Part shown: positions 28,451 to 58,677 of the stretch, piece by piece
Layout of the letters: every line of letters starts with the position of its first letter
Position numbering within the stretch: position 1 is the stretch's first letter
From: Prorocentrum cordatum
Taxonomy: Eukaryota
Length of the DNA stretch: 64,000 bases
Assembly (NCBI GenBank): GCA_963575745.1
Contig: CAUYUJ010000266.1
Coordinates: forward strand, 1 to 64,000
Reading direction: 5' to 3'
Position numbers and translations under genes: made by a program
Notes under the pieces: model-generated
What the model was told of the DNA's origin: nothing
Databases searched by the model: none
Seen by the model: the letters and a program-made list of their open reading frames with translations, nothing else

Positions 28451-30047
28451 GCAATAAAGGCTTAGACGGTTTGCCAGGCTGAACAGCCTTGCCCGCTTCG
28501 GACTAGCGGTACCCGCGCCTTGCCACGGGCAAACGAGCATATTGAGTCCAAATGGCTACGGCTCGGCAACCGAGGAGGAGGAAGAGGAGGAGCAGTAGGA
28601 GGAGAAAGAGGAGTTTGATGCTACGGGGGCAACCTCGCCTAATCTGGCCCTCACTTGTTGTGGTTTCGTAGACGCTGCGCTCCTCCACCGACGTCTGCGC
28701 ACCGTCAAAGAGGAGAAGGAGGAGGAGGAGGAATAATGTCCTCCCTCCCCCCCCTCTCTCCCTCCCTCGTCGCCGCTGGGGACGAGGGGGATGGCAAGAA
28801 GGAGAGAGATGCCTCCTCCCTCCCTCCCGACCCCCCCTCTGCCCAACTCTGTCGTCGTCCCGCGTCGCCGCCAGACGAAAGGGAGGCCGAGGAGGTGGGG
28901 GGCAAGTCCTCCCTAAGCGGGGGAGAGGAGGCCTCCGTGCGGACGGGACAGGGAGGGGAGGCGGGGGAGGAGGCGGATGTGGGCATCGCGCAGCTGCGCA
29001 GGTCCACCTCCTCGTCCTCGTCCTCCTCCTCCTCCTCCTCCTCCTCCTTCTCCTCCTCCTCCTCCTCCTCCTCCTCCTCCTCCTCCTCCTCCTTGGTTGC
29101 TCATCTCCCTCCTCTCGTCGTCCTCCTCTCTGGTTGCTCATCTCCCTCCTCCTCTCTGGTTGCTCATCTCCCTCCTCTACTCCTCTCGTCCTCCTTCCTT
29201 CTTCCTCCTCCTCCTCCTCCTCCCTTCCTCCTCCTCCTCCCTTCCTCCTCCCTCCCCTCTCCTCCTCTCTGGTTGCTCACCTCTTTCCTGGGCGGGGGGA
29301 GGGCAGGAACGAGGTGGCTCTTTGTGACTGTTCCCCTCGGGTACAGTCGGGGCGTTGACCCGGGGGAAACCCAAATAACGAGGGCACTTTTTCCCATGAG
29401 CTAAACTTCGAGTTCTCATGGAAGACCTCAGGAAAACCTAAAGGGCGAACTGCAGAACAACTGAAGAACACTGAGCCCCTCCCCAACGAAACGAGTTCCT
29501 TCTTCAGCGCCCCTATTGGAATGGGGATTGAGGGGTTGGAGGCTGGGGAAGCGCAGTGGGGCCCTTCCGGCCCATGGAGAGAGGGGCCTCTATGGCGCTT
29601 GAAGCCCTGGAGGCGAAGGGGGTCAAGAGGAGCTCTGTTTGCTTGCTTCCTCAGAAGAGCTTCGCCGCGATGGAGGCTGGTCCCCAACACTTCCAAGCGC
29701 GCTGAAACGATGCCTCGAAAACCATGCGTCTCCTAGCTAACGTTCAGTTCTGGCGAATAATAAGAATATGCGACGGCGTAGATATCATCCACCGTGGCCC
29801 CTGGCAAGTTGCTGGCGGCGAGCGAGGGGGGGAAATCAGAAGGAGAAGGCCATCTAAGACGGCGGCGGGACTTCTCAGAAGCCCTCGCGCCTCCTGAGAA
29901 GCTGCCTCTGCCTTCGGGGAAGGCTCCGAAAACTTCCCAGAAGGCCGGAGGACTTCCGAACCTTCTGAGAAGGCCTTCTTCTCCTTCTCGCTTCCCCCCC
30001 TCGCTCGCCGCCGGGGCAGCCTGCGCGGCAGGGGCGGAATCGCGAGC

Positions 30048-42258: not shown

Positions 42259-43994
42259 TCCCCGCCCCCCCCCGAGGCAAGACAGGAGGCAGGAGGGAGG
42301 CGGGAAGGAGAGAAGGAAAGACGGAGACCACAGTGCATTATTCAAAACGAATGCCCAACCAAGGAGGGTTGCGAAAAAACAGCGTAAACCTGAACTTTTG
42401 GCGCTCCGCGCGAGCGTGGCAAGGCCCCCTCCCTGGCGCGCGGAGCGTGCCAGGGGCGGCGCCGGAGGTGCCGCGGGGGGGCCCAGCGCGCGAAGCCCAA
42501 GGTGCTCCAAGATAGGTCTCCTCATCATTCTCCTCCTCCTCCTCCTTCATTATCCTCCCTCTCCTCGACCTCCTCCTCCTTTTCCTCCTCCTTTTCCTTC
42601 TCCTCCTCCTCCTCCTCCTCCTCCTCCTATTGTTCCCCGAAGGGCCTCCACAGTGGCTGGGGGAACGCATGATCCAATAGCGTGGCCAAGCTTTGCCCAA
42701 ACGTCTGGCCACATAGGCGTGTCCTGAAAAGCAGGGGGCGGCGATGATTCGCCGCAGGCGACTTCGACACGATAGGACTTCTGAGAAGGCGCGTGGCCCT
42801 AGAGGGCCGACGCGCGCATAACAGAAGTATGTTTGGACGTTGCCGACAAACGTGACGTCCACTCTCCACTGCTCCAGAAGGGAATTATCCCCACCACGGT
42901 CCCTGGTCGCCCGCACAGACAAGGAAACGGCCTTTATCCGCTCTGGTGACAGAGGAGGGAAGAGATGGAGCCAGGGGAGGGGGGGTGGAGAGAGAGGGGA
43001 GAGAGACCCGCGACCCCCGACATCGTGTGTTCTCACCCAAAGTCAAGTGTGAGCCCCCCGAAGTCTCGACCCCTTCCCCGCGACCAGCTTTTCATCCAAA
43101 GTCAATTTGTGACGGCCCGAAGGCAAGGCAAGGGCCCCCAAAGTTGAGTGAATACCCCGAAACATTCGCCGCGTTTTTTTCGCGACGCGAGGGGGTCTCG
43201 GAAAGACAAGAGACGACATGAAGGGGATTGAGGGGAGGGATCTGTTCCGCATGATCTTTTTCCCTTCCCCTATCTTTCACACCCTGACATGGTGGGGGGC
43301 CCCGTCATATGTGTGCACTTCTCGGATGCCACAACCCCTTCTCACATGCCCCACCGCTTTTCCCGCTCGTCTCCCATGTCCCAGCTTCTCGAGTTGGCAA
43401 GCAAGAGGTGGTTCAGTCCAGTTCCACAGGCGAGGGGGCGCAATCTCAGTCGAGTAGCGCGGCCAACAACCGACCAAATCTGGGGCCCAGGCCTTGGGGA
43501 ATAGAACCTGACCGAAACTTAGTCGTGGCAGTGCTCGACTCGAATAGGCTCCCCCTCCCCGTTCTCGGGGACGCGGTAACATGGGTCAGCGCTACTGCGG
43601 GTCAGCCAACACCATACAGTCGGACCTAAGGCAAAATAACATTCTTCAAGAACATGCAACCCTCCGCCGGCCACAACACACCGAACATCCAAGGGTACCC
43701 TCCCCGGGAAGCACGAGAACATCCAACAAACACGAAGAACATCCCCGAGCCGACCTCGATCCTTTACCTCGATCCGACTGTATCGCAAACCCTGCCCGGC
43801 CGCACAGCAGCAGCCGAAGCTGAGCCAGCGGAGGGGTCGGCCCCGCACGGCTCCCGAACCCGGGCCAGCCAGAGAGCACCCGAGGGGCTCCCGTCAGGGC
43901 TGACCCCCTGCGCCCCGCCCGGGCTCCTCCGCCAGAGTCGGCCTCCCGACTTGTCCAGGGAGTCCAGGGGTGCGGCTTGACCAGCACTTCGGGG

Positions 43995-44150
43995 GTTGCC
44001 AAAGGTGCCCCTGGCCCAAGGTGCCCCCAGCTTCTCGATCAATCTTGAAGCCCCTGGGGCCCTCTGGGCCTCGTGAGGGGTGCTCTGGAGGCCGTGGGGG
44101 CCTTCCTGGAAATCCTGGGGGCACCTTGGCCCAGGGGCACTTCTGGCAAC
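43995..44150. mobile_element. Small foldback/MITE with ~36-bp TIR; partial copy near 56765-56830
   Basis: gttgccaaaggtgcccctggcccaaggtgcccccag versus its near reverse complement ending at 44150. Confidence 0.65.
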
Positions 44151-45674
44151 ACCCGAGCACTGCCTCGGGGATCCAGCCAGGTCGACGAGAAAAGCCCCCG
44201 GGAGGCCGGAGCAAGACGCCCCACGAGCCTCGACCCTCGAATGCTCGGCAGGGATTCGCGCTGGCCCCCGCCACGTGCGCCGGGGCCCCGGCCGCTCCTC
44301 CTGCAGCCCTCGCTGGCCAGGGCGGGCTCTCCCTTTCCCTCTGGGCCGTGCGGGGTCTCTCCGCTCCTCCTCCTCCTCCTCCTCCTCCTCCTCCTCCTCC
44401 TCCTCCTCCTCCTCTTTTTCTTATTATTATGATGTTTCTCCTGTTCTTGACATTGTTATTATTCCTCTTCCTCTTCCTCTTCCTGCTCCTCCTCCTCCTC
44501 CTCCTCCGCCTCCTCCTCCTACTTGTCCTCCTCCTTTTCCTCCTCCTCCTCCCTCCTCCTCCTCCTGCCTCCTCATTCCTCCTCCTCCTCCTCCGCCTCC
44601 TCCTCCGCCTCCTCCTCCTTCTCCTCCTCCTCCTCCTCCTCTTCCTCTGTCTCTTATCGTTCTGGCCCCCCTCCCCTTCCTTCCCCCCTCTTTTCCCCTG
44701 CCATCTTCCTCGCCTCCCCGTCTTCTCCCCTCCTCGCCCCTCCCACACCTCGTCGGGTGCGCCAAAAGGGGGGGGCTGGCGCATCGTGGGCCGAGGCATG
44801 TGTGCGGGAGAGAGGGGTGGAGGGGAGCAGGGGACGTGTCGAGGGAAGGCGAGGGGGCCGTGAGACCTGGGAGAGCTCATGGCTCTGGCCATGCTATATT
44901 CACGCACCCCTGGTGCTCACCCCCCCTCCTGGACGCCTCCCAGCCCCTGGCACGCAGGCGGGGTCCAGGCTGACGGGGGCGGAGGGTCGCCAACGCATCG
45001 CCTGTGCATCGCCGGCGCACTGGCGTTGCGCATGCCACGACAATGGACACCCTAACAGTCCTATCACCGAATTAAACATGTGATTGAAATAAATTGAAAA
45101 AATGTGCTGAAAATGTTTAAAACATGTGTTCTACATGTTTACAGCAGTGTTGACACATTTTCTAGACATCTGGAAACTATTTGGCAACATGCTTCCTCTC
45201 CACTGATCGTCCTCCACAACACCGGCGACGTCGGCACATGCCTCGGCGCCCCTCGGCGTGGAGAGCGTCGGACCACACGCCGAGCCGCACCGCCGATGCC
45301 TCGGCCATGCACGGCGCGCGATCCGCCGATCCCGGTGCATCACTCGGACCCCGTCGGGGAGGCCCGAGTGGAAGCCCCCGAGGTCCTTCTGGGAAGCGCC
45401 CAGGCAGCCCCTCCGGCCGCGTGCGCCCCGACCGGCCCTCCTCCCCAGGGCCGCCCACGGCGACGGCAGGACCGAAGACCGACCGGAGCCCACCGCGAAG
45501 CCGACGAGCCGGCCGAACCGACAGGCCGCAGGCAGGCCATGGCAGGGCGCAGCGGCGCGCGGCGACGCCGCAGCGACGCAGCGGCCGGCCGAGCCGAGCG
45601 CCAACCGACCGCGACGCGGCCGAACCGACCGCACCGCGCAGACCCCTGCTCCCCCCGCCGCCCGGCGGCGGCAC

Positions 45675-45719: not shown

Positions 45720-45977
45720 CTGGCCCGGCGGGGCGCGGTGCGCGGGGGGGCGAGCGCGGGCCTGCCTCTTGCTGGTCGGGGTGTGCGCCGCGGGCTCGTG
45801 CCGCGACGAACCCGGCGTTGGCTTTTCTGACACCGCGCGGATCGCTCGACCTCGAACGATCGCGGCTTCCCGACGGCGCAGATCGATCCGTGTTGGCCGA
45901 TGCTGGGACCCCGGCGGCGTTCCACCTCGAGCGCCCGCGGCAGGGTCGCCGCCGTGGCGGCACGACGCGGGCGTGCC

Positions 45978-45978
<1 letters not shown>

Positions 45979-46012
<34 letters not shown>

Positions 46013-46432
46013 TGCGTGTGCGTGTGCGTGTGCGTGCGCGTGCGCGTGCGTGTGCGTGTGCGCGTGCGCGTGCGCGTGCGCGTGCGCGTGCGCGTGCGCG
46101 TGCGCGTGCGCGTGCGCGTGCGCGTGCGCGTGCGCGTGCGCGTGCGCGTGCGCGTGCGCGTGCGCGTGCGCGTGCGCGTGCGCGTGCGCGTGCGCGTGCG
46201 CGTGCGTGTGCGTGTGCGTGTGCGTGTGCGTGTGCGTGTGCGTGTGCGTGTGCGTGTGCGTGTGCGTGTGCGTGTGCGTGTGCGTGTGCGTGTGCGTGTG
46301 CGTGTGCGTGTGCGTGTGCGTGTGATGCGCGCGCGCGTGCGCGTGCGCGTGCGCGTGCGCGTGCGCGTGCGCGTGCGCGTGCGCGTGCGCGTGCGCGTGC
46401 GCGTGCGCGTGCGTGTGCGTGTGCGTGTGCGT

Positions 46433-46478
<46 letters not shown>

Positions 46479-46479
46479 G
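45979..46479. repeat. Compound (GT)n/(GCGCGT)n/(GCGTGT)n microsatellite, left flank of the retroelement
   Basis: Read directly. Confidence 0.97.
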
Positions 46480-47019
46480 CTCTTTTGCAGTTTGAATGGT
46501 CAGAAGATAGCAATGCTATGTCTGCAATTGGGTAGCTCAGTAATTGAATTCGGGCAGTTACATGAGCGTTTCATTCTCATGCCACGCTTCACCACACATC
46601 TCACATCCTACCATAGCTGTTTCTTTTCAGGCGATTACGGCACGGGTTTAGGCTAGCGCTGAAGACGCTCTAATGAGAGCGGCGCACACATGTGGGCTCG
46701 TGTCGATTCCATGCTACTAAAGTTGCTTATCGTTGGATGCTATTTGGTAAAATATTCATCGAGTGCTCTGCGAGCGAAGGGACCCCGATAATACCGTCTT
46801 GCACTACTCCTCTGACTTTGTCTTGGTGTTGCAGGGTGGCCACGAGTCTTGGGGTGTCGCTTGAGGATCTTGAGTTCGGCAATGTGTTCTCTTTCGAGGC
46901 CTCCGAAGACCCACATGAGTACCCCAATGATGACCTCAAGGACCCCTGGAGCTCCAAGGGCACGCACGACCTACAGGGTGACCTACTTTATCGATAAGCT
47001 TCTACTTCACTTCCAAGTG
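46480..47019 (+). repeat. Pseudo-LTR, left copy
   Basis: Colinear with 52753-53292 (constant offset 6273); about 16 substitutions counted by eye (~97% identity). Confidence 0.95.
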
Positions 47020-47311
47020 CGTACGCGGCGGGATCGGAGTGGCGACGAGCCGTCCCCATGTACCGCAGCCGCGGCAGGAGGTACGTAATGTTTGCCAGTT
47101 CTGTCTTCATATTACGAGTCTGGTTTGCCAGTCCAGTCTCCATATTACGAGTCTGGTTTGCCAGTGCAGCATTCATATCACAATCTCTTCTAAGCTCGAG
47201 TTTCCCTATGTATGATTCTGGCTTGTTCAGCCAAGGTGATGTCCCCCGAGCGTGCACACCACCACCCGTGAAGGCGGCCAAATACCGTGTCTCAAGGTTG
47301 TGGCGGTGCAA
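46988..47311 (-). CDS. Possible antisense ORF of the element with 11-aa coiled-coil repeats (LANQTRNMETG)
   Basis: A 33-bp tandem duplication at 47091-47178 preserves the frame. May extend upstream through the C-run near 47400. Confidence 0.35.
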   Translation of the reverse strand: MHRHNLETRYLAAFTGGGVHARGTSPWLNKPESYIGKLELRRDCDMNAALANQTRNMETGLANQTRNMKTELANITYLLPRLRYMGTARRHSDPAAYALGSEVEAYR

Positions 47312-48097
47312 GTGGTTGGGTTTGTGTACTACCTTCTCTTCCGAGACCGTGCTGCAATGGTGGCTAAACCGATCTCGGCGGCGCGATTGGAGACGCCCCC
47401 CCCCCCCCCCGACTCTGCACTCCCCACGATCGAGAGCACGCAGGCCCTCGTCATCGGCACCCAGGCCACCGCTTTCGACATCTCAATGTACGATTTATGC
47501 TCTGGATTCTGGTGTGCTGGTTTGCCTCTGGTGTACACGGAAGCCCTCTCCAGGACCAAGGCAACCGATGTATCCACAAATTTCGGGGCCAGCGCGGACC
47601 CTTTCAATATGATGGCCTCACGGGATCTCAAGTACGTGCTCGCGCTTACTCTGATATGTATGGTCTCTGTAGTTGGGCCTCGAACATCCCGACAGATCCT
47701 ATGTTTTCTGATCTACATGTGCCAAAGGAGATAACACTATTATTTGCAGGGGGTCTCTGGCAAGTGCTCGTGGCACAACCTTCGACTGCCTTCATTGATG
47801 GACTTCATGATATGAAACGTGCCTTGCTACCCCTGATGGACAAGCCAGGGACCCCACATGATGTATCAGCTCTGGCTCTTGCCGTAACGACAGTGATGTC
47901 TGTGATTCGGATTCGTGGCCTCTTTATTGCAGGAAGACGCCAACGGTGGCGGGCCCGTCAACTTTGTCGAAGCCTCCATCCTATGTGTACAGAGGCCCTT
48001 GCCCGCCCAGACTCCGCACGATTACCACACGCACTCGAACTAGCTCTGTTCCTACGTACTCAGTACATGGCCCTGCGAGGCCTGACCCCCCCCGAAG

Positions 48098-48697
48098 ATG
48101 CCCAATAGCAGCTACCTCTACCAGGTAGGCTCCGAGGTCCTCTACATTGGCAAGGGTAGTATCACGAGGGCCCATGGGCAGGCCTCAGGGGGTGTAGGAC
48201 GTTTTCGGGAACATGTCCGAGCTCTCTTCCAAGTCCAAAAAGGTCAACCTGTAAAAGAAGCTAGTCGTTATCATGGGCTACTTCCAGAATGTAGGCGCTG
48301 GCTCTTGTTTTTCTTCGTGCTGATTGCTTCCTCGTCCGAGATTTCGAGCCCCGAGAGTGCCTGCATTATGTTTGCCCAGCCGTCAGCTAACAACCAACCC
48401 AACGTTCGGTTGGGCCGCAGGTGTGCACGTGTGCGAGCTGGCCCACGCCGTCGGCGAGGACGACGGGACCGACGGCTTGCCTTGCCCCATAGCCCTGTGC
48501 CGCACTCCGAGAGCGCCCACTGGATGGAGGAGCGCATCAATTCCCTTCTCACTAGAGTCCTTGGGCACCAGAAGTATTCAAAACCACGTTATTATTGGCA
48601 AGACCGTTTGAGACTTACGTTTGATGAGCTCTATATTACCTTGATCCAGCACCGCTACTCAAAACATGGCATCCTGGGACCTTTGGGTATATATTAG
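48098..48697 (+). CDS. GIY-YIG endonuclease domain (N-terminal part of a disrupted EN-RT polyprotein, probably starting near 47656)
   Basis: SYLY...YIGKG, RFREH, a conserved E and PSANN. Joins the upstream frame via a shift in C8 (48086-48093). Confidence 0.8.
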   Translation: MPNSSYLYQVGSEVLYIGKGSITRAHGQASGGVGRFREHVRALFQVQKGQPVKEASRYHGLLPECRRWLLFFFVLIASSSEISSPESACIMFAQPSANNQPNVRLGRRCARVRAGPRRRRGRRDRRLALPHSPVPHSESAHWMEERINSLLTRVLGHQKYSKPRYYWQDRLRLTFDELYITLIQHRYSKHGILGPLGIY

Positions 48698-48731
48698 CCA
48701 AAGATGACAAAACTACTCCTTCGATGGGCTT

Positions 48732-50900
48732 GTGGGCACCACTTGGACATCTCTTGGGACCTCGCTTGCCGCTCCCGTCCTGGGAAAAAATGACTACGCC
48801 TATGTGTTTTGGTCCCTGGCTTCGCTTTGCCCTCGCTGGCAAGATAAAGTCCGGGTTCAAACATCCTTGCGAATCTTCCTACAGTCCCAAGGGTTGCCAG
48901 TCCCACGTATGACGACGTTCGAGGTACATTCTGAACAAGAGAAGATCGCCGCATCCCGATGGATCCAGCAGGTGTTTGCACGGCTAGCTCAGCACCGACC
49001 TGGCTGGGCAGGCCTCTTTCGCGGGCAGACGCGGATCGTGGTCAAAAGCATCCCGAACCTCCGCAAGACCTGCCACAATCTTCCTCGGGTGTGTCAACGA
49101 TTACAATTCACAGCCCTTCAAAGTTCCACTGCCATGGACCTTGATCGGGCCGCCAAGGGCCTTGACATGCAGAAGATGTCTTTGAATGCGAAGACCCCGA
49201 TGTCTAACCGAATTTTGACCACACAAGTATTGGGGACGTCTTGCCGTACTTGGGCACAGCGTATGGGACTCTGGGGACGTACGGATGCGGTTTCCCTTCC
49301 AGCTCTCCCTCGGCCTCAGCCCCAACGAGCCCCTGAGCCTCCACGACTAGCCCCCAGATACCAGCATTTACAGGCTACCTCCCAGAAGTTCTTCAAGACC
49401 CTCCAAGAGCACTCCGACGCGGTCTTCGCGCTTGAGGATAAGGACCCCAACAGCCTCTGGAAGGTGGACCCCAAGTGCATGATGGCAAGATGGCTCAGCA
49501 TCCTGGCCCACGCCCCGCATCGGTGGCAGGTTAGCCTTGCATCCTTGCCGGCGGTCACGGACTGGTACCGCCTCCTCTACGATAGCACGATCCCAAAAAG
49601 CCTACGACAAAGGAGAGAGGGCAAGTTCACCCAAAAGAATGTTCCATACTCTTACCCCACTGTAAAGGCAAAATGTTGGCTGGACGTTGACCGCCCTCCC
49701 GAGGCGGGGCGCCACCAATGCGCGAAGCCGAAGCACTCGTGCTTCAGGAACATCTGCTCGTTTGCCAAGTTTCCCTCTCGCCGCCTGTACAGGTATTTGA
49801 GCCGCGCCACGGTCTTTGCAGTGGAGACCGTGAACCCAGGTTGGGCGTGCCGCGGCTTGGAGGACGGCGTCCCGAATTTGGTGGCGCAGTTTGCGAAGCT
49901 AGAGAAAAACGCCTCGCTGAACCCTAAGTGCCTCTGGTGTGGGACCCCAATGGAAGCTCCAGGTACCTTTGTGGCTGACGCGGGGCAGGCTTACGAGGAA
50001 ACCCCCGTGACCACGATTTGGGGCTGTCTGGACCGATTGTTTGAGAGGTTACGGAAAGCGACCCCCAAGGAGGCCTTCACGATTCTCCATAGCAAGCGAA
50101 GTCACGTCTTCTTGGGGGGGGGGGCTCTATCAATGCCAAGCTTTGGGATCGCACTATTCTTCTGTTTGGAAGCCTCAAGCGAGCTCTCACGGGATTTATG
50201 GGAACGCGATAGTTAAAAGCTCTGGGACTCATCTTACACCAATGCCAAGGAATCCCCATTGGAGGCCCATTGAGTGGCGCGATCCTACACGCCGTGTTTT
50301 CTGAAGCGGAGTGGCTGTGTGATCGAGCCCACCCGCGGAATCGTCAGAGGATTGCTCGTGGCCGCTTAGTTGATGATTTGTTCCTCGCATCCTCCCGAGT
50401 TTGTCGTGCCTGTCTTTGTCAGCATGTTGAACGTGTTTACGGCCAGGTAGTGAAGTTTAACATCGAAGATGAAGTTCGGGTCGGGGAAGACACGGTGGTT
50501 CTCAAGTTTCTAGAGGCCGAGCTCCATGTAAACTTCTCCGAGATCAAGGTTTGGGTCATTCACAAGAATGAACGCTTTGCGTTTCAAAGGGGGACCCTCG
50601 AAGATTGTCAAGAAATCGGTCTGTCCGTTCGCAGGGGCCCTCACCGAGACCCAATTACGACTGCAGAGAGCCGAGCTTAAAGGACGCCTGCATCGATGGG
50701 GCCAGCACCACCTCGACCTGAAAACTGGATTGTCTTACTAAGTTCTGGCATGCTCCACTTCCTAAGACTGGGATACCCCGAGAATATCTTGAGAAGAATT
50801 TGGCGATATGTGTCTCCGCTGACTTATCTAAATGATATCATTGAACTATGCTTGCGTTTGGTTTACTCTACCAGTTCCCATCTACTTCCCCGTCCGTCTC
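48732..50900 (+). CDS. Penelope-type reverse transcriptase (frameshifted, in-frame TAG at 50210)
   Basis: EDKDPN (DKG-like), YPTVKAK...FRNICS, ADAGQAYE (motif A), QGIPIGGPLSG (50246-50278), RLVDD (50363-50377), LKFLE, and thumb LGYPENIL. Confidence 0.88.
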
Positions 50901-51019
50901 GCCTTGCTGCTGTTCATGACCAAGGCATTGCCGTACTTGAGAAGTCTCCGCACCTGCCCGAAGGTCACCTACCTGCGCGCCCCTCCCACGCCGCCCAGCG
51001 GACGCTAGCTACCGACACC

Positions 51020-52596
51020 ATGAGCTGGCGTGGTGGCAACCAGAGGCCTTATGGCAAGGGCGGCGGAGGAGGAAAGGGCCCTCGTGCCCCGCGGTTTCAG
51101 GGGCAATACGGTGGTGGTCAGCACTGGCAGGGCCCACCTCCTCCGCGTGCAGGGACCTTTACCTCCATGGCCCAGGAGATGAACTCGTTCATTGAGAACA
51201 TCGGAGCCCTTGGTGAGATGTCGCGTTTGGGGCTATCCTCAGCAACCAGCAGCAGGGCTCCGCCTCAGGTCCTACCACGACGGCACCTGGCACAAATACA
51301 ACACCCGCAACGACACCTACGACACCGACCCCAGCTACGGAACTGGCCAATGCGCTGACCCAAGTCCTTGAAGGTGATGGGTCCCAACGTGCGCGCCAAG
51401 ATACGCGAGTGCAACATACTGTCAACCGCTTGCAGGAGTTGGTTTCGAACCGCCCGACGGGCAGTAATATCTTTGAGGAGCAGCTCGAGCAGTCGGAGGT
51501 CTTCCGCAAGCTGCGAGCTTCGTTGGCTACCATGTCGGATACCGTGGCCACCCACGGTCGCCAGATCTCCACGCTCCAGACCTCCATCGAGGACCAGGGC
51601 GAGGATGTACGATCTACTCGTGCGCTGTTGGAACGCATGGCGCAGGGCATGGGCTTGGCCGTTCCGCCTGCTGCACCGCGCACTCCGAGACGTCCACCTA
51701 CCTCTGGCGCTGTGGGCACCCCGTCGCCATCGGGCTTGCCAAGCCCCGCGCCGCTGGCTGCTGCGGCTGGCGCGATGGGCGGTGACCACGATTCCCCAGG
51801 TGGCTCTCCTGCGCGTGATGGCGCCCTCGGAGTGCCTTGCTTCGATCAGCAAGTGGGCGCAGCTACCCATGTGAAAGCTCCTGGGTTCCTCGGCGCTGGC
51901 ACTGGCAGGCCTGATATGACTACGTTGGGTACCACGATTGCAAATGCACCCGACGCCAACATTACCTTCTCCGAATGGTGGAAAGAGGTCAGTCGTGCAA
52001 AAGGTTTGTCGCAGTGGGGGGTGAAAGTCAAGAACATTGGCTGTTCCGCTCAGGATGCGGACAACTGCAGCCACGTGATGAAGATTGGTGAGGCGCTGTT
52101 CGCCAGGCTTACGGATAGCGGTGAGTGGAGTTCGACGGACATGCAGACGATTCTCTTGCAGCGAGACCTCGATTCTGATCCTTACATTGCTGAGTACTAT
52201 CGTGGCAGGCTCCCTGCCCGCTCTAATGCTTGTGGGCCCTCACCCCTTTCCTTCTTCTCGCTCGACACTTTGTCGCGCATCGTGTTTCTGTGCATCTCTT
52301 GTGTTTGTATTCGGCTAGCCGTCGAGGGCTCCCTTCTCATCAGTGATGTCCGTGCCCTCACTGTTGGCAGCCTCGAACATGCCTTGGGTGAGGTGCCCCG
52401 TGTCTTCCCACTTGTGGTGGGAAGGTTTGGCCTCGATTTCGTCGCGAGTCGCTGGCTGTACCCGCCCCCTCTTGCCTCTGCAAGATTCCACAATATTGAT
52501 GTGGCAACGCCCACGGGGCTTACCCACGTTGCGCAGAACTTAGGTCAGGCTGCGCTTGTCTCGGGCGCAGCCGTGTTTGTGGATTGGTTCCTTTAA
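51020..52596 (+). CDS. Accessory ORF of the element: RG/G-rich N-terminus, T/P linker, coiled coil, small C-terminal domain (one frameshift near 51230)
   Basis: MSWRGGNQRPYGKGGGGGKG... shifts at G4 (51229-51232) into a long open frame with heptads LATMSDTVATHGRQISTLQTSIEDQGEDVRSTRALLE. Confidence 0.65.
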
Positions 52597-52752
52597 GCCT
52601 ACATGATCCCATGATCCCTAGCTAGGAACCCCAGCCATGACCTTAGGGAGCAGGTGATGTTGCCGACCTCAGGCGACGGATATCTCCTTTTTGTCTTTGC
52701 CTTTTTGATGCCCTCCCTGTCTTTGGGACGGTTGTGTGTGTGTGTGCGTGTG

Positions 52753-53292
52753 CTCTTTTGCAGTTTGAATGGTCAGAAGATAGCAATGCTATGTCTGCAA
52801 TTGGGTAGCTCAGTAGTTGAATTCGGGCAGTTACATGGGCGTTTCATTCTCATGCCACGCTTCACCACACATCTCACATCCTACCATAGCTGTTTCTTTT
52901 CAGGCGATTACGGCACGGGTTTAGGCTAGCGCTGAAGACGCTCTAATGAGAGCGGCGCACACATGTGGGCTCGTGTCGATTCCATGCTACTAAAGTTGCT
53001 TCTCGTTGGATGCTCTGTGGTAAGATATTCATCGAGTGCTCTGCGAGCGAAGGGACCCCGAGAATACCGTCTTGTACTACTCCTCTGGCGTTGTCTTGGT
53101 GTTGCAAGGTGGCCAAGAGTCTTGGGGTGTCGCTTGAGGATCTTGAGTTCGGCAATGCGTTCTCTTTGGAGGCCTCCGAAGACCCACATGAGTACCCCAA
53201 TGATGACCTCAAGGACCTCTGGAGCTCCAAGGGCACGCACGACCTACAGGGTGACCTGCTTTATCGATAAGCTTCTACTTCACTTCCAAGTG
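52753..53292 (+). repeat. Pseudo-LTR, right copy
   Basis: Direct repeat of 46480-47019, preceded by a 20-nt internal (TG)7CGTGTG tract. Confidence 0.95.
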
Positions 53293-54106
53293 TGTGTGTG
53301 TGTGTGTGTGTGCGCGTGTGCGTGTGCGTGTGCGTGTGTGTGCGTGTGCGTGTGCGTGTGCGTGTGCGTGTGCGTGTGCGTGTGCGTGTGCGCGTGCGCG
53401 TGCGCGTGCGTGTGCGCGCACACGCACGCGTGCGCGTGCGCGTGCGCGCGCGCGTGCGCGCGTGCGCGCGTGCGAACGTGCGCGCGTGCGCGCGTGCGCG
53501 CGTTGCGCGTGTGCGCGTGTGCGCGTGTGCGCGTGTGCGCGTGTGCGCGTGTGCGCGTGTGCGCGTGTGCGCGTGTGCGCGTGTGCGCGTGTGCGCGCGT
53601 GCGCGCGTGCGCGCGTGCGCGCGTGCGTGTGTGCGTGTGTGCGTGTGTGCGTGTGTGCGTGTGTGCGTGTGTGCGTGTGTGCGTGTGTGCGTGTGTGCGT
53701 GTGTGCGTGTGTGCGTGTGTGCGTGTGTGCGTGTGTGCGTGTGTGCGTGTGTGCGTGTGTGCGTGTGTGCGTGTGTGCGTGTGTGCGTGTGTGCGTGTGT
53801 GCGTGTGTGCGTGTGTGCGTGTGTGCGTGTGTGCGTGTGTGCGTGTGTGCGTGTGTGCGTGTGTGCGTGTGTGCGTGTGTGCGTGTGTGCGTGTGTGCGT
53901 GTGTGCGTGTGTGCGTGTGTGCGTGTGTGCGTGTGTGCGTGTGTGCGTGTGTGCGTGTGTGCGTGTGTGCATGTGCGTGTGTGCGTGAGTGCGTGTGTGC
54001 GTGTGTGCGTGTGTGCGTGTGTGCGTGTGTGCGTGTGTGCGTGTGTGCGTGTGCGTGTGCGTGTGCGTGTGCGTGTGCGTGTGTGTGTGTGTGTGTGCGT
54101 GTGTGT
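53293..54106. repeat. Compound (GT)/(GCGTGT)/(GTGTGCGT)n microsatellite, right flank
   Basis: Read directly. Confidence 0.97.
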
Positions 54107-55342
54107 TCCCTGTGGATGTATGCTGGCGCATCCCGCCAGCGTACCAGGCTCTTGACCGACAGCTGCTCGAAGAAAGCGTGTGTGTATGTGTGTGCGTGGG
54201 GGGAATTCTGAGAGGCTCTTCTCACGCGAGTGTGGGATTGGAGGGGGCCAGCGATTGGCAGATGGGGCGCTGGCCAACGAAGACCCTCATTTGTGAATGT
54301 GACGAAACATACCTCCAGTTTGCAGCGGTGCTTCTGCATACATGAGTGCCCGCTTTTGTATCTCTCGGTCATCGCCAGCGGCTCCCTCCAGTGCGTCATG
54401 GACACCTCCGACAATTGGTTCAACGCATCGCACAACACAGTCTAACAATCCCACCCGCCCTTTGGGCGTAGGTGGGCACACGAGCGTTCTCTCTCCTCTT
54501 CTAAAGCCCCCTTCCCTTCGGGGAGGGGTGCCCTCCCCCTCTCCTCCCAGAGGTTTTTCCGGGGGGGGCGCGATGTGTCCGAGGGTCCTTCTTCGCCCAT
54601 GATGGCTCCAAGAGGGCCTTCGATGCTCCAAGATGGTCTCCAAAGCGTCTCAAGATAGCCGAAGATGGTTCAAGATAGTTTCCGCCATACCTCCAAGAGG
54701 CCCGACGAGGGCCACAAGACGGTTCCAAGTGCTCTGGGGGCCCCTCTCAGGACCTCCCCCATAAACCCAGATCCTTCACCAGCCAAAGGAACATCCATGA
54801 CGTGTGCCTTCTCGCCTTTTGGTGGGCTGCGGCGCGCAGGGACCGCACGAAGCTCCACAGAAGCGTACGATGTGGTGGCCGTGCAGAGCTTCCTATGGTC
54901 CTTGCGCGTCGGGCGTTTGTTCCTTGCGCGTCGGCCGTTTGGTCCTTGCGCGTCGGGTGTTTGTGGTCCTTGCGCGTCGGGTGTTTGTGGTCCTTGCGCG
55001 TCTGGGCTGGGTCCTTGCGCGTCGGGCCCCAGGGCCCCGCCAGGGGCGCGCGCGCGGAGCGAGAGTGCTCCACCGCTCCGCTGGGGGTTGGGCCTGCGGA
55101 GCTCGGGCGTGGCCCCGTGGAGCCTCTGTTCGGTCACTGCGCCCGTCGAGCAGGTAGAGTCGAGCTGGAGTCGAGCTAGGTTCGAGCAGGGATCGAAGAC
55201 GGACGGACCCAGGCAGGAGAAACGTCCTTCCAGAACACGAGACCCTCCGCAGGCCGAGGCACCCCAAATCATCAGATCACTTGAGAGTACACCCCCCCAG
55301 GATGCACGAGAACGTCCAACAAGCACGAGCAAAAGCAAAGGG

Positions 55343-55959
55343 CCCAACCGTGTGCAGTTGTGAGTAACGCAGCTGTGAATATCATCTTCGGTGGAGCTCC
55401 CTACGGGGCCACGAAGCGTGGGGAGGGGGGTGCCGAAGTGGGTGGGGAGACGCATGCGGACGGTGGCCACTGGGGCCTTCGTTGGAGCTTCCGATGGGGC
55501 CGCGAACCGTGTGAGGAGTGTGCCGAAATGGGTATGCGGTGGGCGGGGAGGACGCATGCGGACGCGGCCACTGGAGCCTTCGGCGGAGCTCCCTATGGGG
55601 CCACGAACCGTGTGAGGGGTGTGCCGAGATGGGCATGCGGTGGGCGGGGAGGACGCGTGCGGACGCGGCCACTAGGGCCTTCGGTGGAGCTCCCTACAGG
55701 GCCACGAACCGTGTGAGGGGTGTGCCGGTACAGGCATGCTGTGGGCGGGGAGGGCGCATGCGGACGCGGCCACTGGGGCCTTCGGTGGAGCTCCCGATGG
55801 GGCCACGAACCGTGTGAGGGGTGTGCCAGAATGGACATGCGGAGGGCAGAGGCAAGGAGGGGGAGGAGGGAGGAGGGGGAGAAGGAAGGAAGGAAGGAGG
55901 GAACGCGGGGCGCTCCCCTCGAATCGAGGACCCAACACCACAGGATGATTGGGGAAAAA
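55343..55959 (+). mobile_element. Satellite-carrying non-autonomous element (101-bp units, terminal hairpin plus A-run)
   Basis: Same 5' leader and unit as the 22.4-kb array; ends CCCAAC...GATTGGG GAAAAA. Confidence 0.65.
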
Positions 55960-55962
55960 CAG

Positions 55963-56124
55963 CATAAACATAAACTTTTGGCACTACGCGCGGATTTCTT
56001 GGATCTGCGCTGGACCCCCCTCTCTGGCGCGCGGAGCGTGCCAGGGGCGGCGCCAGAGGCGCCGCCAGGAGGGCCCAGCGCCGTTCCAAGAAATCTGCGC
56101 GAGTGCCCAGAGCTTATGTTTATG
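55963..56124. mobile_element. MITE family C; partial copies at about 42380-42500 and 7845-7890 (inverted)
   Basis: TIR cataaacataaacttttggcact / agtgcccagagcttatgtttatg. Confidence 0.65.
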
Positions 56125-56408
56125 ATTATTTTCTCCATCGGCACGAAGAACGCGAGGGCACCCTCCCCGAACCGACCTCGGTCCCGTGCTCCAGCCCGAC
56201 CGCAGACGTGTCCGGTGGGCCCCAGGCGGGGCCACCTCCAGGCTGCAGGGCGCCAACCCCAAGGCAGGGCCCCCAGGACCAACCCCCAGGACCAACCTTC
56301 CCCGAACCGACCTCGGGCCCGCACTCCGGCCCGACCGCAGGATCCGCCCCGCGGGCCCCTGGCAGGGCCCTCCAGGACCAGCCCCCAGGCTGCAAAGGCG
56401 CCGCCCGC

Positions 56409-56455
56409 CTGCTCCGCGACCGAGAGCGCCGCCGGGAGCTCGATCTCTTGCTGGC
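56409..56455 (-). CDS. Host gene exon 2 (ASKRSSSRRRSRSRS), RS-rich
   Basis: ag|G acceptor, AG|GC donor, 47 bp, phase 0 to 2. Confidence 0.65.
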
Positions 56456-58677
56456 CTCGGCGTCGGCGGGCGCCGTGCCCCGCACGCTCCTCCTCCTCCT
56501 CCTCCTCCTCCTCCTCCTCCTCCTCCTCCTCCTCCTCCTCCTCCTCCTCCACCTCCACCTCCACCTCCACCTCCACCACCACCACCACCACCACCTCCTC
56601 CCCCCCTCTCCCCCGAGGCCGGCCGTTCGGTCCCGGCGACGGTTCCGCCACTCGCGGCCTTCACATCGGGCGTTGCTGGAAGTGATCCTGCCCCAAAACG
56701 CGTCCCCAGCTTTTCGCGCCCTGTTGGGGCCGATGGGGCCCTCCAGGCATGGTGCAGGGTGCTCTGGAGGCCATCTGGGCCTCCGCGGAAATCCTAGGGG
56801 CACCTCGGGCCAGGGACACCTTTGGCAACATCCAGCTTCGGCGATCTAGCTCCCATCCTGAAAGCAGCAACAGGCTAAGTTTGAGAACTGCAGGAACCCT
56901 TCATTACTACAAGGTCGGAGGTTCGCCACGTGCCGTCTTACACTGCACTGGAACGAGAAGGAGAGGGAGAGAGAGAGAGAGAACAAACAAAAAACGAGAG
57001 AGAAAGAGAAAGACAGGAATCCGCCGACCCTGTCGGCGTCTGTGAGGGGCTTCTCCGATCGAGTCGTCGCCGCCGCTGCTCGTGAACCGTTGGCGCCGTC
57101 GTCCTCTTTCCCTGCCCTCGCCTCCCCGTGCCCGCCGCCGCCCCAACCGCTCTCCGTGCCCGGGCCCTCCTCCGCGGGCGCGCCGGCCCAAGTGCGAGAA
57201 ACGTCGTGGTAGACTCGAAGGGAAGCCACTTCCCTTCTTTCTAAAATAATCAACCCCCTTCCCATTGATCCCTTTGATCCCTTTGATCAGGGGGAATGGA
57301 AGGGAAGCCCCTTCCCATCCCTCTGATCCAATTCGAAGGAAAGGGGTCAAAAGGAAGGGAAGCCCCTTCCCTTTGATCCATTCCCTGGGGGGGGGGGTCT
57401 CGGGGGGGGGGGGGGGTCCTGGGGGGGTTCCCGGGTCAGATACGACTCCCCCCGCGGGGTGTCCTGGAGCCCAGAGAGCCCAAGACGAGCCAGGAGTGCC
57501 CAACGAGGCCCCCAACACGGTCCAAGAGGGCTTCGAATCGCCGAACGATCTGTCCAAGACGCCTTCACGGCCTCCAGACGGCCCATGAGTCCTGCAAGAC
57601 TTCCCAAGAAGCCTCCAGGAGCATTACCAAGAGGGCCCCAAAAGAAAACTCATTGATTCCCTAAAGATTTATGAAGCATTTCGGCGTTCTCGCCTCTTCC
57701 AACTCCAGACGCTCCCAGACGTCCCAAGAGGCCTCAGATCCTTCCAAGACAGTCGAAGAGGCCTCCAGGAGAGACCCCAACCGGCCCAAGAAAGTCCCCA
57801 GACGGCCCAAGACGCCTCCAAAACAGCCCACGAGGCCCCCCAGACGGCTCCAAGAGCATGCCCAGATGAGAAACCAGAACGGACATTTCGTGCCCTCGGC
57901 CCCGAGAGGCTCCCAAGAGGGAGGGTGCGCCGCTGGATCTCCCCAAGGGAGGGAGGGGGGACCCCCCCCCCCCTTGAAGGGGGGATGGGGGGGGGGGGTT
58001 CTGGACCCCCCCACCCCACCCCTTTAGTGTATTCAGGGAGATCCACTGGCGCACTTTCCCCAAGAGGCCCAAGAGACTCCCAGGACGCCCCCAGTTCCCC
58101 AGGAATCCCAAAGCTCTCTGGAGGCGCCTAAAGGGTCCTCCTGCTCCTCCTCCTCCTCCTCCTCCTCGTCGTCGTTGTCGTCGTCATATTCAGGGTCAGC
58201 GGCACTGGCTGTAAGGCTTTCTCAAAGGGAGGGAGGGAGAGAGAGAGAGAGAGAGAGCGAGAGAAACATGGATTAAAGAGAGAGAGAGAGAGAGAGAACG
58301 AGAGAGAGAGAGAGGGAGAGAGAGAGAAAGAGGAACCAACAAAGAAAAAAAAACAGAGGGAGAGAGAGAGAGAGAGATATGGAGAAAGAAACAGAAAAAG
58401 AACAAGTGTGAGAGAGAGGCACAACAAAAGAAGACACACGAGAGAGAGAGAGAGCTCTCAGAGAAGGAGAAGGAGGGATAAGGAGGTGGACGCTGCTACG
58501 ACACAAAATGCGAATCTGCTAAAATACACGTTTTCCTCCGGGAATGGGACGATGTTTGCCTCTTTTGGGGCTCCCCTGAAGGCCTCTCGACATGTCTTTG
58601 GGGCCTCTTGAGCCGTCTTGGGGGACCTCTCGGGCCGTCTTGAGGCCGTCTTGCGCTGCCCTGGGGCCCTCCTGCGC

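Follow-up and report, generated by a model that had tools for sequence, protein, structure and literature searches.

We describe a retroelement in a window of 64,000 nucleotides of the Prorocentrum cordatum genome (contig CAUYUJ010000266.1 of assembly GCA_963575745.1, positions 1 to 64,000 of the forward strand), whose reverse transcriptase (RT) is followed by a conserved protein tail. Positions 51020-52161 read as the C-terminal module, of about 381 residues, of one protein that consists of an N-terminal region, a GIY-YIG nuclease, the RT, its thumb, a linker and the tail. We consider it probable that the tail is a C-terminal, Gag/ORF1-like extension of the single protein of a Penelope-like element (PLE) of the N-terminal-nuclease type (Naiad/Chlamys-style); the copy in the window is dead. 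No class of eukaryotic retrotransposons is less well understood than the Penelope-like elements and, to our knowledge, most of those that bear a nuclease code for one protein only and lack a Gag or ORF1 partner. The tail offers a candidate answer to how RNA is packaged or chaperoned in such elements. What is new here is the conserved tail, about 380 aa long, which comprises a coiled coil and an end domain that has no clear solved match, while the nuclease-RT plan was already known; literature searches listed no description of such an element or tail in dinoflagellates.

The fusion of the tail to the RT is visible in the reading frames. As a preliminary description of this DNA had noted, the open reading frame (ORF) of the tail starts with an ATG, at position 51020, in the frame of the RT thumb, and this frame is free of stops over 50681-51358. 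Fourteen sequences reach 50 residues or more beyond the thumb, and in 13 of them the RT frame continues into the tail without a stop. These 13 are the window itself, the partial proteins P0002, P0013, P0017, P0022, P0031, P0035 and P0063, which cross the thumb-tail junction, and P0014 (1363 aa), P0016 (1558 aa), P0060 (1503 aa, cut by the contig end), P0061 (1828 aa) and P0065 (1775 aa), which hold RT and tail in one protein; an N-terminal GIY-YIG motif is found by regular expression in P0014, P0016, P0061 and P0065 but not in P0060. Tails are 22-34% identical where the RTs are 35-52% identical, so that the tail is the faster evolving part. The similarity of the tail tracks that of the RT (Spearman 0.64; the 15 pairs are not independent), which argues that the tail has long been inherited vertically within the one protein of the element, and is neither a captured gene nor a permuted ORF1.

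The preliminary description had proposed a permuted order, with an ORF1-like gene placed so as to serve the RT of the following copy in a tandem array, and had mentioned a fusion to the RT as a side possibility. It is the side remark that the in-frame, stop-free junctions favour; the tandem arrangement finds no support in them or in the upstream terminal repeat, which carries just the last 563 bp of the 3' region and does not include the tail.

The same locus could also be read as a separate ORF1-like gene whose only translation start is its own ATG and which shares the RT frame by coincidence; we judge this improbable. Such a reading would account for the methionine that opens the head of the tail, which is kept in 13 of the 13 junction-bearing sequences with a head although the preceding linker cannot be aligned, for the A at position -3 of ATG 51020, and for the database proteins P0012, P0021 and P0025, all of which start exactly at this methionine. 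Yet nothing would then keep the junction open, and it is open in all sequences but one at RT identities down to about 28%; moreover, the starts of the three proteins may simply stem from gene prediction on contigs that are broken or short (840-5519 bases). P0012 (tail only, 331 aa, starting at the conserved methionine) and P0062 (an RT of 1100 aa that stops before the thumb) are both recorded on one contig of 5519 bases and may be one broken element.

Within the fused protein, the invariant methionine hints at a second, internally started product, and it is the single observation that speaks for one. The tail would work in cis, as a part of the RT, and in view of this invariance a shorter RNA would probably give rise to the tail alone as well. 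In a more specific version, which we put forward as a tentative possibility, the shorter RNA would be capped by a spliced leader (SL), the most natural course in a dinoflagellate, through trans-splicing at the pyrimidine-rich linker just upstream, and the tail would be made alone besides forming the end of the endonuclease-RT (EN-RT) protein, as in a 'pol-then-gag' element. If true, a Gag/ORF1-like protein with a fold without solved counterpart would be nested in the 3' end of the pol ORF.

The head that follows the methionine is basic and rich in glycine and aromatic residues. Pooled over 16 heads (724 residues), Gly makes up 32.5%, Asn 9%, Ser 8%, Gln 7%, Pro 7%, Lys 6.4%, Trp 6.1%, Arg 4.7% and Tyr 4.3%, and K+R reach 11% against 3% for D+E. 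RG dipeptides number zero to two per head, and the head in the window holds one RG and 15 Gly in 46 residues; the trait of the family is therefore Gly with Lys and Trp/Tyr, and not the RG-richness at first ascribed to it. GW182 and some suppressors from plant viruses bind Argonaute through GW/WG repeats, and a Gly/Trp head might be an Argonaute hook that blunts small-RNA silencing of the element. Of the 44 Trp residues of the pooled heads, 36 adjoin G, S or N. We nevertheless regard such a hook as very unlikely, since two of the 16 heads (P0013 and P0063) have no Trp, the head in the window has only two, and low-complexity regions of Gly, aromatic and basic residues are common as RNA-binding or condensing segments.

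The tail has many homologues. An exhaustive protein search found 51 proteins at E <= 1e-3, 19 at E <= 1e-10 and four at E <= 1e-30, where a word-indexed search with the near-full-length tail had given no match. One of the 51, P0039, is a HEAT-repeat protein and was rejected as false, which leaves 50 true homologues. P0005, 49% identical to the tail, is recorded publicly as a protein of Prorocentrum cordatum. Scans of metagenome DNA with the window tail and P0021 as single queries gave no confirmed locus.

The homologues also set the end of the protein. Their matches end near residue 310-315 of the 459-residue frame, at TILLQ (52147-52161). A profile of the end domain was found in 46 of 60 retrieved proteins, 42 of which reach the profile end; 41 of these terminate within two residues of it, P0049 being the exception. 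The conserved protein thus ends at TILLQ, position 52161, and not at 52596. The length of about 525 aa given in the preliminary description is too great, its last 145 codons having no match in any relative, and 52162-52596 corresponds to 3' untranslated sequence in intact elements.

Up to this end the tail of the window is split between two frames. The second frame is open over 51217-52596 and is joined to the first by one frame change in a run of G at 51229-51232; the first frame ends with GEMSRLG and the second starts with GAILSNQQQ. P0004, which is 82% identical, translates GEMSRLGAILSNQQQ unbroken across the position of this break, and one contig of X1, a run of public DNA contigs that contains other copies of the element 85-99% identical to this one, has an extra G behind 51228. 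The single frameshift by which the preliminary description had joined the two halves is thus one base missing from the window copy.

That the ORF is a chance reading frame, a captured host gene unique to this insertion or neutral junk, or that a programmed -1 slip or a short intron accounts for its frame change, is hardly credible. The GC-rich DNA of the window does yield many long spurious ORFs, the break falls on T TTG GGG, which resembles a heptamer under the slippery-heptamer rule, and a GT..AG stretch of 56 nt (51213-51268) can be read as an intron. Against these points stand the 50 true homologues; the tail is conserved domain by domain and is not drifting, so that it is neither unique to this insertion nor absent or neutral in other copies, as the preliminary description had allowed it might be, and relatives and another DNA copy are continuous across the break. 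The intron was rejected, as it would delete the conserved GEMSRLGAILSNQQQ; the programmed slip was rejected as well, because with at least five other breaks and in-frame stops in this copy a special decoding is unneeded.

The anatomy of the tail was examined with AlphaFold. The whole-tail model (311 aa, 50-row alignment) has a mean predicted local distance difference test (pLDDT) score of 75.9, with helices at model residues 35-48, 59-73, 81-88 and 90-140, the last at pLDDT 81-91. A T/P linker, a heptad region and a W-containing helical domain had all been named in the preliminary description, and all three are borne out: the T/P linker is present and predicted to be disordered (pLDDT below 50), the heptad region repeats with a conserved period of 3.5, and the Trp residues lie in a confidently modelled end domain. 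The heptad core at 51502-51639 places a core residue every three or four residues over about 46 residues, or about 6.5 heptads, in 19 aligned sequences. Hydrophobic positions are 92, 95, 99, 102, 106, 113, 116, 120, 127, 130, 134 and 137, and core positions 109 and 123 are polar. The power at period 3.5 is 1.39, against 0.13 +/- 0.13 in shuffled sequences, and was reached by none of 2000 shuffles.

When the end domain is modelled by itself (117 aa, 43-row alignment), it has a pLDDT of 93.1 and a predicted template modelling score (pTM) of 0.85, with six helices and two short strands. Its best-conserved motif is FSEWWKEVSRAKGLSQW (51967-52017), and W250, W251, Q262 and W263 are nearly invariant. 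The model found no clear match in the Protein Data Bank (PDB) with Foldseek (best E 2), none at Z >= 5 among 48161 chains in a wide VIA search (best Z 3.8), a best Z of 3.7 with VIA on the list returned by Foldseek and a best E of 3.4 against BFVD; according to the notes of the search tools themselves, absence of a structural match is no proof of a new fold. A language-model look-up placed the end domain near clusters that bear GCR1_C, at a weak 0.81, below the 0.9 line of the tool. Against Pfam, 43 tail sequences hit 46 families at E <= 10, and the 25 that were matched most often do not include GCR1_C (PF12550). Pfam searches with the pieces of the window and these 43 sequences gave nothing consistent.

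The end domain, of about 100 residues, is mildly acidic (mean net charge -2.6, median isoelectric point 5.6, n=34). The tail could accordingly be imagined as a docking or targeting module and not as an RNA chaperone. Its coiled coil and acidic six-helix domain would then link the RT with other copies or with a protein of the host, perhaps to enter the nucleus or to reach the (GT)n target. Besides the acidity of the end domain, this is in line with the position of the element in a microsatellite and with the 13 of the 50 top matches of the wide search that are death-fold adaptors (DD/DED/CARD), six-helix modules of protein-protein contact. These matches are weak, however (Z 2.8-3.8 with 53-64 residues aligned), and at chance level for helical domains, and docking leaves unexplained the basic Gly/aromatic head and a zinc knuckle in P0065. 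We consider docking in place of RNA chaperoning rather unlikely.

The zinc knuckle bears on the Gag/ORF1-like reading. Gag and many ORF1 proteins bind nucleic acids through CCHC zinc knuckles. The tail of P0065 contains a zf-CCHC domain (21.1 bits against a Pfam cut-off of 20.8, E 3.2e-4); the RT of this protein is about 28-30% identical to the others, and its tail also has the methionine with a Gly/Lys/Trp head, the coiled coil and the end domain (E 6.9e-8, 11 sequences). Because of this knuckle, the basic disordered head and the coiled coil, a built-in Gag/ORF1-like module is the best reading of the tail, and the functional analogy is plausible. In such a module the head would bind the RNA of the element, several copies would be held together by the coiled coil, and the acidic end domain would serve as the docking site for a protein partner. 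Of the ORF1-like ribonucleoprotein (RNP) chaperone in permuted position that had been proposed for this ORF, the function thus stands as plausible, supported by the basic head, the coiled coil, the CCHC of P0065 and the invariant methionine, and the position does not, since the tail is downstream and in the frame of the RT.

Several observations weigh against a Gag/ORF1-like tail on a Penelope-like protein. P0064 ends where the tail would begin, the one miss among the 14 junctions; the CCHC knuckle occurs in a single distant relative, P0065; the acidic end domain is not an obvious nucleic-acid binder; and Pfam and structure searches found no RRM, ORF1 end domain or CCHC in the window tail. Pfam also recognised neither the RT nor the nuclease in the window pieces, with no match to GIY-YIG, and the assignment to the Penelope-like elements draws on motifs, architecture and a language-model lead. 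Finally, a gap of 5 bases at 50114 in one X1 contig would join two frames, but the same contig has an insertion of 7 bases at 49955, so that this repair of the window copy is not clean.

In LINE-1 elements, ORF1p combines a coiled coil with a nucleic-acid-binding part and is encoded upstream of the RT. The tail is like it in its conserved heptad coiled coil of about 46 residues; unlike ORF1p and Gag-like chaperones, it lies downstream, in the RT frame at nearly every junction, and no RRM or ORF1 end domain was found in it. The ORF1 of the endonuclease-minus PLEs (Athena/Coprina), as described by Craig et al. (2021, PMC8557442), is similar in that a coiled coil and a presumed nucleic-acid-binding part belong to the same element as the RT, and differs in being upstream, separate or joined by a frameshift.

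The closest likeness is to Naiad and Chlamys, for which the same paper (PMC8557442) reports an N-terminal GIY-YIG, a K/R-rich block, a DK motif, pseudo long terminal repeats (pseudo-LTRs), a (CA)n target and no hammerhead. Here too a GIY-YIG lies upstream of the RT in one ORF (at motif level only in the window, and by regular expression in 7 of 11 long relatives), all 11 long relatives have EDKDP or QDKDP, as does the window (EDKDP), and an R/K-rich block lies between nuclease and RT, with 8-12 K/R in the richest 25-mer in 7 of 7 relatives. Pseudo-LTRs that derive from partial tandem copies, insertion into (CA)n/(GT)n and the lack of a canonical hammerhead are likewise common to both. Differences exist as well: 6 of 7 relatives have no CxC between GIY-YIG and DK, a motif whose place is known from the text of PMC8557442 only (P0068 has two C.C there, which are not conserved); the unit is 6.3 kb long; and the conserved tail of about 380 aa after the thumb is not part of the architecture described in the sections of that paper on which this comparison draws.

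C-terminal additions and gag-like parts are not without precedent in this clade, according to PMC8557442. Chlamys-1_cBra of Chara braunii has a long ORF with a C-terminal extension, Josephin-like and with a Cys/His motif, which shares its C-terminal place with our tail but has no head, coiled coil or six-helix domain. In Chlamys-2_cBra a gag-like zf-CCHC peptide is encoded by a separate upstream ORF, whereas the knuckle of P0065 lies inside the C-terminal tail. Dinoflagellates and alveolates receive no mention in PMC8557442, so that the family described here belongs to a host group absent from that 2021 description and would widen the host range of the clade. In a language-model look-up of the RT region of P0016 (residues 640-1190), clusters from plants and green algae scored 0.97, and those from nematodes and rotifers, which carry HTH_animal, RVT_1 or DUF8422, scored 0.94-0.96; this is taken as a lead only.

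The features of the locus are collected in Table 1. The element is bounded by two direct repeats of 563 bp each, 97% identical and spaced 6273 bp apart, and the tail lies between them, inside the terminal repeats as had been stated. The block as a whole is inserted within a microsatellite of (GT)n type, with arrays on both sides. Between the repeats the forward strand is collinear with the 1558-aa P0016, whose residues 84-1553 correspond to 47653-52146 in five pieces (tblastn). The 64-kb window contains no second copy of the element, and no hammerhead ribozyme family matched at E <= 1 across 45800-54300. A tandem repeat of 33 bp (2.7 copies, 47090-47178, Tandem Repeats Finder) lies just inside the 5' end of the unit. 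Long low-complexity tracts flank the element region at 43900-44900 and 55400-56700, and a flanking tandem repeat of 101 bp has three copies at 55465-55847, 87-89% identical to the first.

Table 1. Features of the element, its tail and its flanks, in window positions (AF2, AlphaFold; TRF, Tandem Repeats Finder)
Feature	Positions	Strand	Basis and remarks
(GTGTGC)n microsatellite, left flank of insertion	45980..46471	.	TRF, 81.8 copies
Upstream pseudo-LTR	46460..47022	+	Direct-repeat match; copy of the final 563 bp of the element unit
Single full element unit, 6273 bp	47023..53295	+	Repeat spacing; collinearity with P0016 over 47653-52146
N-terminal GIY-YIG nuclease region	48089..48697	+	tblastn to P0016 and P0014; motif positions
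Reverse transcriptase, fragmented	48786..50680	+	Motifs; alignment with P0016 and P0014
RT thumb (AELKGRLHRW, ENWIVLL...LRLGYP...)	50670..50884	+	Alignment; frame break near 50720
Variable S/P/A-rich linker, thumb to tail	50885..51019	+	12 aligned junctions
Invariant Met, then basic Gly/aromatic-rich head, 46 aa	51020..51157	+	Junction alignment; composition
Conserved Met-rich segment FTSMAQEMNSFIENIGALGEMSRLG/AILSNQQQ	51158..51255	+	Alignment of relatives; cut by the G-run break 51229-51232
T/P-rich disordered linker	51256..51330	+	pLDDT < 50, model residues 2-32, two single-residue gaps
Helical region: three shorter helices, then a 51-residue helix	51331..51648	+	AF2 model; heptad test
P/A/G-rich disordered linker	51649..51834	+	pLDDT 46-55 per 10-residue block, no secondary structure; unalignable among relatives
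C-terminal globular domain, six helices and short strands, true protein end	51835..52161	+	AF2; relatives end here
145-codon read-through, no counterpart in any relative	52162..52596	+	Homologue alignment
Downstream pseudo-LTR, 3' end of the unit	52733..53295	+	Direct repeat
(GTGTGTGC)n microsatellite, right flank of insertion	53290..54105	.	TRF, 101.9 copies

The copy in the window has decayed. Frame changes lie near 48063-48089, 48787, 50114-50135, 50573-50610, 50720 and 51229, which makes at least six breaks, and in-frame stops lie at 48695 and 50210. With these breaks and stops, and with a read-through past the usual stop, the copy is dead, and as such has no bearing on the host. The copies in X1 have single-base indels of the sign that would join the frames at 48087, 48787, 50720 (an extra A) and 51228 (the extra G already mentioned); the break near 50600 has no counterpart among the listed X1 differences.

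Upstream of the tail the main motifs of nuclease and RT are still legible. A GIY-YIG-type motif, YLYQVGSEVLYIG, lies at 48113-48151, upstream of the RT, with RFREH at 48200-48214, and the R-rich block between nuclease and RT is at 48413-48475 in this copy. The RT contains EDKDP (49434-49448), motif A DAGQAYE (49977-49997), motif B GIPIGG (50249-50266) and motif C LVDD (50366-50377). Against solved RTs in the PDB, the family profile gives a weak match over motifs B to C only (E 0.032). In 10 of 10 relatives motifs A and B are 88-92 residues apart, the interval in which an insertion in the fingers would appear as a long spacer. Between the DK motif and motif A the window and most long relatives have in common a conserved HxC-x4-HxC (49713-49742), followed about 65 residues on by a CxxC (49929-49940); this region may be a metal-binding insert in the fingers of the RT.

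The protein seems to extend further upstream than the nuclease. The region 47653-48063 is 27.6% identical to residues 84-226 of P0016, and when 47639-47793 is compared with another DNA copy, 14 of the 17 listed differences, counted by hand, fall on third codon positions. This suggests that 47653-48063 is a coding, constrained N-terminal extension.

Elsewhere in the window, 21 nt on the reverse strand at 28541-28561 resemble the consensus of the dinoflagellate SL, with three mismatches; none of 100 shuffles matches, and an ATG follows directly. The stretch looks like the relic leader of a retroposed mRNA and, together with the Prorocentrum cordatum record of P0005, makes a dinoflagellate host likely.

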